The position numbers and the translations under genes are program-made. From a virus (taxonomy: Duplodnaviria; Heunggongvirae; Uroviricota; Caudoviricetes), in IMG/VR virus record IMGVR_UViG_2703719355_000017: a DNA stretch of 7,674 nt; one strand, written 5' to 3'. Shown here piece after piece: positions 1 through 3,527 of the stretch (its first letter is position 1; each line of letters opens with the position of its first letter). The notes beneath the pieces are model-generated. The model had not been told where the DNA came from and did no database searches. It saw only the letters and a list, made by a program, of their open reading frames with translations.

Positions 1-426
1 TCAATGCACAGCCACAATATTTCCTGCAGGGCCACCACGATTCATCTGGTTGAAACCAGCGATCGCCACTGCGACAAAATCATCAGCGTCTCTCACCAGT
101 CGTTCCCGCGTCTCCACTAGTTCCCGAAAATAGGCTGAGCTATGGCTGCGCATTCGGGCCACCAGCAGAGGTGGCATTGCTTTTTCGATAGCTGGTAACA
201 ACGCCTGAATTTTTTTAACCGCATCAGGGGTGTCTTTCTCCACCCAGCGGAAAATTTTCTGAGTATTGCGTGCCAGGGCTTCCGGATGGCTGTCGTCATA
301 CAGTTCAGGAAACGTCATACCCAACTCAAAATAAGCCTGGGTTATTCCAGCTGCTGGAACTTTTTCGCCATCAGGACGCGCCCAGGCATTCATCGCCATG
401 CGGATGTGTTCATGCTTGATTTTCAT
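1..426 (-). CDS. ydaT: YdaT-family prophage protein, 141 aa (proposed CII-like regulator)
   Basis: Complete ORF with ATG at 426..424 and TGA at 3..1. Its start overlaps the stop of the upstream HTH gene (ATGA), suggesting translational coupling. Size and position after a YdaS-like gene match the Rac-type ydaS-ydaT pair; N-terminus MKIKHEHI. Family assignment is from memory, not a search. Confidence 0.65.
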   Translation of the reverse strand: MKIKHEHIRMAMNAWARPDGEKVPAAGITQAYFELGMTFPELYDDSHPEALARNTQKIFRWVEKDTPDAVKKIQALLPAIEKAMPPLLVARMRSHSSAYFRELVETRERLVRDADDFVAVAIAGFNQMNRGGPAGNIVAVH

Positions 427-725: not shown

Positions 726-729
726 ACCT

Positions 730-822
730 TCCTCGGTTTAGTGTTTTTTTGCGAGTTTAGTGTTTAATAAACCGTTAAGTCAAGTATTTGCTTGTTTAGT
801 GATTACTAAAGATAATTACCAC
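730..822. promoter_or_regulatory. Divergent back-to-back promoter/operator region (PR/PRM-like)
   Basis: Minus strand: -35 TTGACT (783..778), 18-nt spacer, -10 TAAACT (759..754). Plus strand: -35 TTGCTT (788-793), 17-nt spacer, -10 GATAAT (811-816), placing the start site at or next to the ATG at 823 (leaderless). GTTTAGTG occurs three times (736-743, 755-762, 794-801), plus near-palindrome GTTTAATAAAC (762-772). Confidence 0.5.
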
Positions 823-1214: not shown

Positions 1215-1406
1215 ATGAATAGAGCCCTTTCACCAATGGTTTCTGAATTTGAAACCATTGAACAAGAAAACAGTTACAACGAATGGCTGCGTGCGAAAGT
1301 AGCAACGAGCCTTGCAGATCCGCGCCCAGCAATTCCCCATGACGAAGTTGAGCGCAGAATGGCAGAACGCTTTGCTAAAATGCGCAAGGAACGGAGCAAG
1401 CAGTAA
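1215..1406 (+). CDS. paaA2: Small antitoxin, 63 aa (PaaA2-like)
   Basis: ATG at 1215 with SD GGAGG (1206-1210). Charged, probably disordered 63-aa product MNRALSPMVSEFETIEQENSYNEWLRAKVATSLADPRPAIPHDEVERRMAERFAKMRKERSKQ. Stop TAA 1404-1406 lies 1 nt before the toxin ATG. Confidence 0.8.
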   Translation: MNRALSPMVSEFETIEQENSYNEWLRAKVATSLADPRPAIPHDEVERRMAERFAKMRKERSKQ

Positions 1407-1407
1407 A

Positions 1408-1686
1408 ATGTTACCCGTGTTATGGCTTGAAAACGCAGATACCGACCTAGATGATATAGCTAGCTATATTGCTCGTTTCGACATAGATGCGGCTGAACGC
1501 TTATGGCAGCGATTAAGGGGTTGTGTGCTGCCGTTATCCGAACATCCGTATTTATACCCACCAAGCGACAGAGTACCTGGCTTGCGTGAGATTGTAGCCC
1601 ACCCTAACTATATAATTCTATACCGCGTAACAACATCAAGCGTTGAAGTAGTAAACGTGATCCACGCAAGACGCCAGTTTCCCTAA
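1408..1686 (+). CDS. parE2: ParE/RelE-superfamily toxin, 92 aa (ParE2-like)
   Basis: ATG at 1408 immediately after the antitoxin stop. C-terminal signature of the ParE/RelE fold (YIILYRV...VEVVNVIHARRQ). The ORF track start at 1312 is inside the antitoxin gene and is rejected. Confidence 0.85.
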   Translation: MLPVLWLENADTDLDDIASYIARFDIDAAERLWQRLRGCVLPLSEHPYLYPPSDRVPGLREIVAHPNYIILYRVTTSSVEVVNVIHARRQFP

Positions 1687-1756: not shown

Positions 1757-1805
1757 GGTTTAGTTTTTACTTGACTTAAGTTTAATGTTTATTAAACTAA
1801 AAATA
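1757..1805 (+). promoter_or_regulatory. Second operator/promoter copy (OL/PL-like) downstream of the toxin gene
   Basis: GGTTTAGTTTTT (1757-1768) parallels GGTTTAGTGTTTTT at 735-748. -35 TTGACT (1771-1776), 16-nt spacer, -10 TAAACT (1793-1798). GTTTAATGTTTATTAAAC (1780-1797) matches GTTTAGTGTTTAATAAAC (755-772) at 16 of 18 positions. Confidence 0.45.
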
Positions 1806-3026: not shown

Positions 3027-3114
3027 AATCAATAGCTATTTCAATAAGTGATGCCATCTCGTTGCGTTTTGTTGAATTCATCTTACGTAATACTTCATGT
3101 TGATTAGCACCTTT

Positions 3115-3155
3115 GGCGGCATCAGTTTAATTGCTGGCTGATGTCCGCCCTTTTT
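3115..3155 (+). terminator. Putative rho-independent terminator
   Basis: GC-rich stem GGCGGCATCAG (3115-3125) pairs with CTGATGTCCGCC (3138-3149) with one bulge; 12-nt loop; followed by TTTTT (3151-3155). Lies about 90 nt after the 124-aa gene. Confidence 0.5.
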
Positions 3156-3159
3156 AAAG

Positions 3160-3178
3160 TGAATTTTGTGATGCGGTG
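3160..3178. repeat. Left arm of a 19-bp perfect inverted repeat
   Basis: TGAATTTTGTGATGCGGTG (3160-3178) is the exact reverse complement of 3303-3321. Arms are separated by 124 bp. Confidence 0.9.
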
Positions 3179-3302
3179 AATGCGGCTCAGCGCACGCGGA
3201 ACAGTTAAAAAGGCCAGTTGACTTCCGTATTGGTTCTTATGGGTGGGTTCTCTGTATCCGGCGTTAATTGTTAACTGGTTAACGTCACCTGGAGGCACCA
3301 GG

Positions 3303-3321
3303 CACCGCATCACAAAATTCA
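3303..3321. repeat. Right arm of a 19-bp perfect inverted repeat
   Basis: CACCGCATCACAAAATTCA (3303-3321), reverse complement of 3160-3178. Confidence 0.9.
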
Positions 3322-3338
3322 TTGTTGAGGACGCGATA

Positions 3339-3527
3339 ATGGAAACGTTATTACCAAACGTTAATACGTCTGAAGGTTGCTTTGAAATTGGTGTCAAAAT
3401 CAGTAACCCTGTATTTACTGAAGATGCCATTAATAAGAGAAAACACGAACGGGAGCTATTAAATCAAATATGCATTGTTTCAATGCTGGCCCGTTTACGT
3501 CTGATGCAAAAAGGATACTGGCAATGA
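3339..3527 (+). CDS. Hypothetical small protein, 62 aa
   Basis: ATG 3339 with GAGGA (3327-3331) 7 nt upstream. The longer track ORF from 3243 would start inside the inverted-repeat region and is rejected. Stop TGA 3525-3527 overlaps the next start. Confidence 0.55.
   Translation: METLLPNVNTSEGCFEIGVKISNPVFTEDAINKRKHERELLNQICIVSMLARLRLMQKGYWQ

Follow-up and report, generated by a model that had tools for sequence, protein, structure and literature searches.

A CP-933P-type immunity region with divergent promoters, shared operator repeats and a predicted leaderless repressor transcript in a caudoviral genome fragment

Genes and Identity of the Locus

The window considered here, the whole analysed stretch of 7,674 nucleotides from a member of the Caudoviricetes (IMG/VR record IMGVR_UViG_2703719355_000017), contains the immunity region of a lambdoid prophage of the CP-933P type, with the gene order ydaT-ydaS / paaR2-paaA2-parE2. 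Two genes are encoded on the minus strand. The first, ydaT (positions 1 to 426), specifies a CII-like activator of 141 aa that matches the Pfam family YdaT_toxin (E = 1e-9) and the resolved structures 3c4r and 8bt1 (E = 5e-89). The second, ydaS (423 to 725), specifies a Cro-like helix-turn-helix (HTH) regulator of 100 aa, recognized by the Pfam models YdaS_toxin (E = 3.9e-12) and HTH_3 (E = 1.4e-6) along with a weak P22_Cro match. On the plus strand, paaR2 (823 to 1194) encodes a CI-like repressor of 123 aa whose residues 1-65 match, at 100% identity, the N-terminal domain solved in PDB entries 7nkv and 8c3k, deposited as 'Phage repressor protein CI', although the full protein matches no Pfam family, HTH models included, at E <= 0.01. 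It is followed by the antitoxin gene paaA2 (1215 to 1406, plus strand; 63 aa; Pfam PaaA2, E = 1e-19) and the toxin gene parE2 (1408 to 1686, plus strand; 92 aa; Pfam ParE_toxin, E = 1.6e-16). The two HTH reading frames on which an earlier note on this DNA had built its interpretation, of 123 aa on the plus strand and 100 aa on the minus strand, are thus both present as described.

The same region has been studied in the cryptic prophage CP-933P / Sp12 of Escherichia coli O157:H7 (Jurenas et al., mBio 2021; PMC8630535), with which the window shares the gene order ydaT-ydaS / paaR2-paaA2-parE2-PL, the 97-bp length of the paaR2-ydaS intergenic region (726 to 822), and the promoter hexamers and repeats within it. 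Every feature of a CP-933P-type region that can be read from DNA is found in the window, namely a PaaR2 beginning MQKKE, the paaA2-parE2 pair, the 97-bp intergenic region, a PL promoter and a YdaT box. The primers FL1 and FL2 of that study are identical to window positions 726-745 and 801-822, so that the fragment used there in electrophoretic mobility shift assays (EMSA) corresponds exactly to 726-822; the primers used to clone PRM and PR likewise match the window base for base.

The allele carried by the window is nevertheless its own. Within the 97 bp there is a single mismatch to E. coli O157:H7, a G at position 774, in the spacer of PR and within the second operator repeat, where all five aligned E. 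coli genomes have A. Relative to strain TW14359 of O157:H7, PaaA2 is identical, PaaR2 differs at 2 residues (E66/V67 in the window for G/G), YdaS at one (A for T at position 37) and ParE2 at 2, while YdaT represents a different allele with 24 of its 141 residues changed. Two published ydaS primers expose one synonymous difference at 696. The 261-bp stretch surrounding the control region (640 to 900) was found in 593 of 5,426 complete E. coli genomes (about 11%), none of which matched it perfectly over 640-900, and it is also carried by Escherichia phage Evi. On the 3' side of parE2, the similarity of the prophage arm to the best-matching E. coli genomes is only about 92-93%.

Two further regulatory elements of the locus had been overlooked by the earlier note. 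Downstream of parE2 lies a PL933P-type promoter with OL-type repeats (1758 to 1798, plus strand), composed of TTGACT at 1771-1776, a 16-nt spacer and TAAACT at 1793-1798, the same -35 and -10 hexamers as in PR; a GTTTAGT begins at 1758, and the 18-bp palindrome GTTTAATGTTTATTAAAC occupies 1780-1797 with a score of 14/18. Two instances of the combination TTGACT-N(15-19)-TAAACT are present in the window, where 0.01 would be expected. At the junction of ydaS and ydaT (416 to 433), in the region of the PRE933P promoter, lies the YdaT box (OM), TTGATTTTCATGAATCAA, an inverted repeat that fits TTGATT-N6-AATCAA perfectly and is the sole zero-mismatch match to this motif in the window; both the motif and a DNase I footprint upon it have been described (PMC9986795). 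No Rfam family matched the window at the gathering threshold.

Divergent Promoters and the Repressor Start Codon

The intergenic region presents two promoters back to back. The PR933P-type promoter of ydaS-ydaT (754 to 783, minus strand) consists of a -35 hexamer TTGACT (783 to 778), an 18-nt spacer and a -10 hexamer TAAACT (759 to 754), with a start predicted near 747 on the minus strand; it was called by a consensus scanner with 9 of 12 matches, and a putative Shine-Dalgarno sequence for ydaS, GAGGAAGG, lies downstream at 727 to 734 on the same strand. Facing away from it, the PRM933P-type promoter of paaR2-paaA2-parE2 (788 to 816, plus strand) has TTGCTT at 788-793, a 17-nt spacer and GATAAT at 811-816. 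The -35 hexamers are separated by 4 bp (784 to 787), a distance that had been given correctly before. The consensus scan missed PRM, because TTGCTT fits TTGACA at only 3 of 6 positions, and a poor -35 of this kind fits a weak, PRM-like promoter. Promoter-like sites were not enriched between 400 and 1300 relative to shuffled sequence (2 found against 1.3 expected), and with PRM itself uncalled the scan therefore provides no independent evidence for this promoter.

That evidence comes instead from experiments on the O157:H7 prophage, where PR933P and PRM933P were predicted within the 97-bp region and both confirmed by 5' RACE, PRM additionally by gfp fusions (PMC8630535). The divergent arrangement claimed for the window from its letters alone is consequently mapped for an intergenic region that differs by 1 nt. 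More generally, what is said here on start sites and leaderless translation, on binding and footprints, and on cross-repression and bistability has been published for that one-nucleotide variant of the 97 bp; the identity of the locus, the anatomy of the repeats and their conservation are contributions of the present analysis.

In the window, GATAAT is followed by six nucleotides (TACCAC) and then by the ATG at 823, and the 20 nt upstream of this ATG contain no tetramer resembling a Shine-Dalgarno sequence, as had been noted. The published RACE start of PRM coincides with the paaR2 start codon (PMC8630535); with the A of the ATG as the first base of the message, the paaR2 mRNA is leaderless. 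Translation from such a message was confirmed by expression from a leaderless construct, by N-terminal sequencing that returned MQKKE, and by the intact mass of the protein (PMC8630535), and MQKKE is the N-terminus of the frame that opens at 823. The earlier prediction of a leaderless repressor transcript resembling that of lambda cI from PRM had thus already been borne out in O157:H7.

Operator Repeats and Their Anatomy

The 7674-bp window contains the octamer GTTTAGTG in exactly three places, each on the plus strand, at 736-743, 755-762 and 794-801. These copies overlap the ydaS leader, the ydaS -10 hexamer (754 to 759) and the spacer of PRM, respectively, and the coordinates and overlaps given for them in the earlier note are accurate. 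Whether such repeats could have arisen by chance in AT-rich DNA, or whether they are iterons or the sites of a host factor unrelated to the HTH pair, can be judged from their frequency, distribution and occupancy. The region is indeed AT-rich, and one of 200 shuffles contained three copies somewhere in the window, where the mean expectation is 0.20. Their clustering is a different matter: three occurrences of any 8-mer within 70 nt arose in about 0.2-0.3% of simulations, namely 6 of 2000 with a Markov model of the whole window and 32 of 20000 with the local AT-rich composition. The same half-sites recur at PL and are conserved across genera, and the repeats lie within the footprints published for PaaR2 and YdaS (PMC8630535). 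An origin by chance or for an unrelated factor is accordingly given a negligible probability.

The octamers are part of a larger arrangement that the earlier note had not seen. A degenerate fourth copy, GTTAAGTCA, lies at 774-782, so that four sites begin at 736, 755, 774 and 794 with start-to-start distances of 19, 19 and 20 bp. Inverted partners at 764-772 and 803-811 turn two of the copies into imperfect 18-bp palindromes, 755-772 and 794-811, with 12 and 14 of 18 positions matching. The published account describes four evenly spaced 18-bp inverted repeats with the half-site consensus GTTTAGTAA, in which IR1 lies over PRM, IR3 over PR, and IR2 and IR4 each have one good half-site, and it also describes three pseudosymmetric operators, OR1-OR3 (PMC8630535). 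Placed on the window by means of the text and the primers of that report, a mapping that is itself inferred, IR4 (repeat 4; 736 to 753; GTTTAGTGTTTTTTTGCG) would lie within the ydaS leader with a single conserved half-site. IR3 (755 to 772; GTTTAGTGTTTAATAAAC) would be the 12/18 palindrome overlapping the -10 of PR, and IR2 (repeat 2; 774 to 791; GTTAAGTCAAGTATTTGC) a degenerate site with one half only, overlapping the -35 of PR and containing G774. IR1 (794 to 811; GTTTAGTGATTACTAAAG) would be the 14/18 palindrome that fills the PRM spacer and touches its -10.

On the 97-bp fragment, PaaR2 and YdaS each produce a specific shift in EMSA with several complexes, and DNase I footprints spanning both promoters extend over about 78 bp for PaaR2 and over 27 and 32 bp for YdaS, which occupies the PRM side first (PMC8630535). 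The binding assays that had been proposed for both HTH proteins thus exist for O157:H7, with both proteins binding. For the operators themselves the earlier reading stands in part: the GTTTAGTG copies do lie within footprinted operators, but the published units are four 18-bp inverted repeats and three pseudosymmetric operators rather than three direct octamers.

A perfect 9-nt inverted repeat, TTTTTTTGC / GCAAAAAAA, at 744-752 and 825-833 was also considered, as a long-range pairing that might sequester the AUG in PRE-derived transcripts. It was rejected as a selected feature: its arms are homopolymer runs, E. coli genomes differ in the length of the T-run, both arms carry substitutions in phage Evi, and the more distant relatives conserve neither of them.

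Conservation in Distant Relatives

A scan for PaaR2 homologues with one genome per species returned 27 distant homologues of 44-76% amino acid identity, from the genera Xenorhabdus, Photorhabdus, Yersinia, Erwinia, Raoultella, Enterobacter, Morganella, Arsenophonus, Winslowiella, Acerihabitans, Massilia, Mycoavidus and Glomeribacter, and others. A divergent YdaS homologue accompanies 22 of the 27, and YdaT 12. The core GTCAAGTATTTGCTTGTTTAG, which includes the -35 hexamers of PR and PRM together with the left half-site of IR1, lies upstream of the paaR2 homologue in 26 of the 27 relatives. In 17 of them, belonging to 14 genera, the leaderless geometry of a -10 element, 5-7 nt and an ATG is kept, and the core stops 22-24 nt short of the ATG, compared with 23 nt in the window; their -10 elements, CAAAAT or CACAAT, align to GATAAT of the window.

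Sixteen of these leaderless-type relatives could be aligned with the window without gaps from the -10 of PR to the ATG. Across the 17 sequences the elements AGTTTA and GTCAA of PR are nearly invariant, and the invariant columns comprise AGTTTA, TAAAC, TCAA, TTTG-TT, TAA, A-AAT and the ATG, of which TTTG-TT and A-AAT belong to PRM. Invariance within the conserved block extends to the -35 and -10 positions and to the outer positions of the half-sites. IR1 is kept in the relatives as GTTTAGnnATTACTAAT, and IR4, the copy at 736, is absent from them.

The relatives bear on the start of the repressor. The paaR2 frame of the window is open back to a GTG at 760, which would give a protein of 144 aa, and in-frame GTG codons stand at -63 and -24 (760 and 799); translation could in principle begin at either, or on a longer transcript, leaving the proximity of GATAAT and the ATG a coincidence, and transcripts that read through from PRE would indeed have a leader. 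Against this stand the RACE start at the ATG, the MQKKE N-terminus and the expected intact mass obtained for O157:H7 (PMC8630535). In 12 of the 16 leaderless-type relatives checked, of the 17, there is no in-frame start codon upstream, several having a stop within 3-27 nt, and the distance from -10 to ATG is fixed at 5-7 nt. Strings resembling a Shine-Dalgarno sequence are absent from 13 of the 16 and adjoin the ATG in three (both Erwinia loci and Acerihabitans), a spacing too small for them to function. The upstream GTG codons are rejected as starts on the published N-terminus and RACE data and on the start codons of the relatives, and a leadered repressor is regarded as highly improbable. 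The leaderless start at 823 is retained, and its conserved geometry lends evolutionary support to the view that leaderless translation has been selected in this repressor family. In nine loci of Xenorhabdus and Photorhabdus an insertion of 48-310 nt separates the -10 from the ATG, and the gene is for that reason presumably leadered.

The comparison also informs the nature of the recognition unit. The proteins could read asymmetric direct repeats, either the three GTTTAGTG octamers or the pseudosymmetric OR1-OR3, rather than symmetric 18-bp palindromes, and an imperfect 24-nt direct repeat (748-771 and 787-810, 83% identical) would agree with this. The relatives, however, lack the copy at 736, and their best-kept columns are the symmetric outer positions GTTTA...TAAAC. 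Moreover, the PR-proximal 18-mer is flipped: the consensus of the 16 relatives is GTTTATTAAACACTAAAC, of which IR3 of the window, GTTTAGTGTTTAATAAAC, is the exact reverse complement, with the flanking promoter elements unchanged. Inversion of a site between constant promoter flanks argues for a symmetric reading of the 18-bp palindromes, a point that PMC8630535 leaves open. Recognition of direct repeats is thus considered unlikely, and the comparative evidence favours recognition of inverted repeats; the half-site contacted by each protein, and the binding of a dimer to each 18-bp palindrome, are inferred. Although PDB entries 8c3k and 8c3l exist, a literature search found no later paper defining the contacts between PaaR2 and DNA.

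None of the 27 relatives has PaaA2 or ParE2 within 1.5 kb downstream of the repressor gene. The absence of the toxin-antitoxin pair from all of them supports the proposal, made in PMC8630535, that paaA2-parE2 was inserted into a pre-existing immunity region.

A Lambda-like Switch

In O157:H7, each regulator represses both promoters, by up to 45-fold in gfp fusions, and PaaR2 at low levels stimulates PRM about 4-fold; a third regulated promoter, PL933P, has the same hexamers as PR933P at -35 and -10, and a PRE promoter is activated by YdaT (PMC8630535). A two-colour reporter reveals two heritable states, and a stop codon in paaR2 or ydaS abolishes the corresponding one (PMC8630535), results that bear out the bistable geometry attributed to this stretch in the earlier note. 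As published, then, the region is almost certainly a lambda-like switch in which two regulators repress each other through operators that they share and the repressor mRNA is leaderless.

Applied to the window, the 726-822 region would serve as the OR-type control region of a CP-933P-type immunity switch. From it, PR, starting near 747 on the minus strand, would drive ydaS, the Cro analogue, and ydaT, the CII analogue, while PRM would drive paaR2-paaA2-parE2 on the plus strand with the A of the ATG at 823 as the first base of the transcript. PaaR2 and YdaS would compete for the four GTTTAGT-type sites at 736, 755, 774 and 794. At low concentration PaaR2 would repress PR and stimulate the weak PRM, and at high concentration it would shut off both promoters; YdaS would fill the PRM side before its own promoter, which it would occupy when more concentrated, and the resulting mutual repression would generate two heritable states. 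The PL operator set (1758 to 1798) and the YdaT box with PRE (416 to 433) would complete a lambda-like circuit.

The likeness to lambda OR comprises divergent promoters whose start sites lie about 76 bp apart, operators shared by the two regulators and filled in opposite order by repressor and antirepressor, a weak PRM stimulated by low levels of repressor, and a leaderless repressor mRNA. It extends to OL/PL operators at a distance and to a PRE promoter with its CII-like activator. The lambda OR itself contains three 17-bp operators at 23-24 bp. The CP-933P-type region shares the back-to-back PR and PRM and the leaderless repressor geometry of a lambda-type switch but, in place of three 17-bp operators, has four 18-bp sites in a register of 19-20 bp, a difference also noted in PMC8630535.

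The genes and proteins differ as well. YdaS has no homology to Cro, nor YdaT to CII, and the place that rexAB takes in lambda is filled by paaA2-parE2. PaaR2, which is reported to form octamers, likewise a lambda-like feature, has an HTH predicted by HHpred, lacks a peptidase motif and shows no response to mitomycin C (PMC8630535). At only 123 aa, lacking a Pfam match and an S24 peptidase domain and not inducible by the SOS response, it departs from lambda CI; it has the N-terminal HTH of the CI/LexA (S24) family but not the C-terminal S24 peptidase, and because this autocleavage domain is absent PaaR2 is a functional analogue of CI rather than a member of the CI/LexA family.

The Rac prophage of E. 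coli K-12 has a similar divergent arrangement of repressor and ydaS-ydaT and an almost identical YdaT box, with cross-binding between the two prophages. Its repressor, by contrast, is RacR rather than PaaR2, it has no toxin-antitoxin pair, and its YdaS and YdaT share only 26% and 31% identity with their CP-933P counterparts (PMC8630535). Rac YdaT also binds the intergenic region, a property that CP-933P YdaT lacks.

Implications

The interpretation in the earlier note is supported, and the case illustrates that a reading of the sequence by itself can recover a whole regulatory architecture correctly. For a nearly identical sequence, the switch with its promoters, its leaderless paaR2 mRNA, its bistability and the binding of both regulators has been known since 2021, and because the promoters, the leaderless mRNA, the binding and the bistability were demonstrated experimentally at that time, the finding counts as an ordinary one. 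What remains new is the conservation of the cassette and of its leaderless geometry across genera, the flipped IR3 and the G774 variant.

A block of about 70 bp, from the -10 of PR to the start codon of paaR2, has remained almost unaltered in sequence across at least 14 genera of Gamma- and Betaproteobacteria. Its carriers include the fungal endosymbionts Mycoavidus and Glomeribacter, and the loci are prophage-like. It is conceivable, though we hold the idea at somewhat less than even confidence, that the PaaR2/YdaS control region is an unusually conserved and portable immunity cassette, of which the CP-933P lineage is a derived form. The derivation would then have consisted of inversion of the PR-proximal operator, addition of a fourth site in the ydaS leader, and acquisition of paaA2-parE2; in Xenorhabdus and Photorhabdus, an insertion of 48-310 nt would have turned a leaderless gene into a leadered one. 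If the operators and the specificity of the HTH proteins are indeed shared, elements that carry the cassette would be homoimmune across genera, contrary to the rapid diversification that usually characterizes lambdoid immunity.

Operator architecture of the promoter region

The 18-bp operator repeat proximal to PR, the minus-strand ydaS-ydaT promoter, occupies 755-772 (IR3), and the consensus GTTTATTAAACACTAAAC drawn from the upstream regions of distant PaaR2-homologue loci (L006-L032, one genome per species) is its exact reverse complement. The -10 and -35 elements that flank this operator are the same in the window and in the relatives, and on this comparison the PR-proximal operator is inverted in place relative to theirs. 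The adjacent degenerate repeat IR2 (774-791) carries a G at position 774, also within the PR spacer, where A stands in five genomes of E. coli (O157:H7 among them) as well as in the Escherichia phage Evi. As judged from these alignments, G774 is a base specific to the window, and no complete E. coli genome perfectly matches the window over 640-900. With G774, the IR2 half-site becomes GTTAAGT, nearer to the GTTTAGT consensus than the ATTAAGT that results from A.

A perfect 9-nt inverted repeat, TTTTTTTGC and GCAAAAAAA (744-752 and 825-833), flanks the entire promoter region and takes in the G of the paaR2 ATG. It is probably fortuitous, since it is composed of homopolymer runs, varies among E. 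coli genomes and lacks conservation in the relatives.

Leaderless and leadered repressor genes

No Shine-Dalgarno sequence for the repressor gene paaR2 is present in 806-822. The gene is reportedly expressed also from PRE, an upstream YdaT-dependent promoter (PMC8630535), and on such a leadered transcript the paaR2 AUG would be internal and likewise without a Shine-Dalgarno sequence. Among the homologues from Xenorhabdus and Photorhabdus (L006, L007, L009-L013, L018 and L019, at about 1400-1500), an insert of 48-310 nt separates the conserved -10 from the repressor ATG, which would give these repressor genes a leader in place of the leaderless layout. The insert in X. khoisanae (L018) consists of tandem repeats of ~22 nt each, and in X. 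ehlersii (L006) an ATG located 4 nt past the -10 starts a mini-ORF of 14 codons.

Mosaicism and lineage-specific gene content

A mosaic boundary is placed, from sequence identity, within or adjoining ydaT (window 1-426 versus 423-1700). The stretch from ydaS to parE2 is nearly identical to O157:H7; YdaT differs from its O157:H7 counterpart at 24 of 141 residues, the PDB 3c4r allele being closer. The remaining prophage arm, which bears dicB, a ydfD-like gene, an 816-aa exonuclease VIII/Rv2179c fusion, xis and int, reaches just ~92-93% against the best-matching E. coli genomes. A DicF-like antisense sRNA match on the plus strand (3104-3150; E = 1.8e-5) spans the whole Rfam model (1-52 of 52) at 35.1 bits, below the gathering score of 48, and lies a short way upstream of the dicB homologue (3243-3527); the match resembles a diverged copy of DicF at the Qin-like position. 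A sub-threshold STnc100 match at 3148-3371 overlaps dicB.

A divergent YdaS homologue is present in 22 of the 27 distant PaaR2 loci and paaA2/parE2 in none of them within 1.5 kb downstream of the repressor homologue, so that the toxin-antitoxin pair appears to be an insertion confined to the CP-933P lineage.
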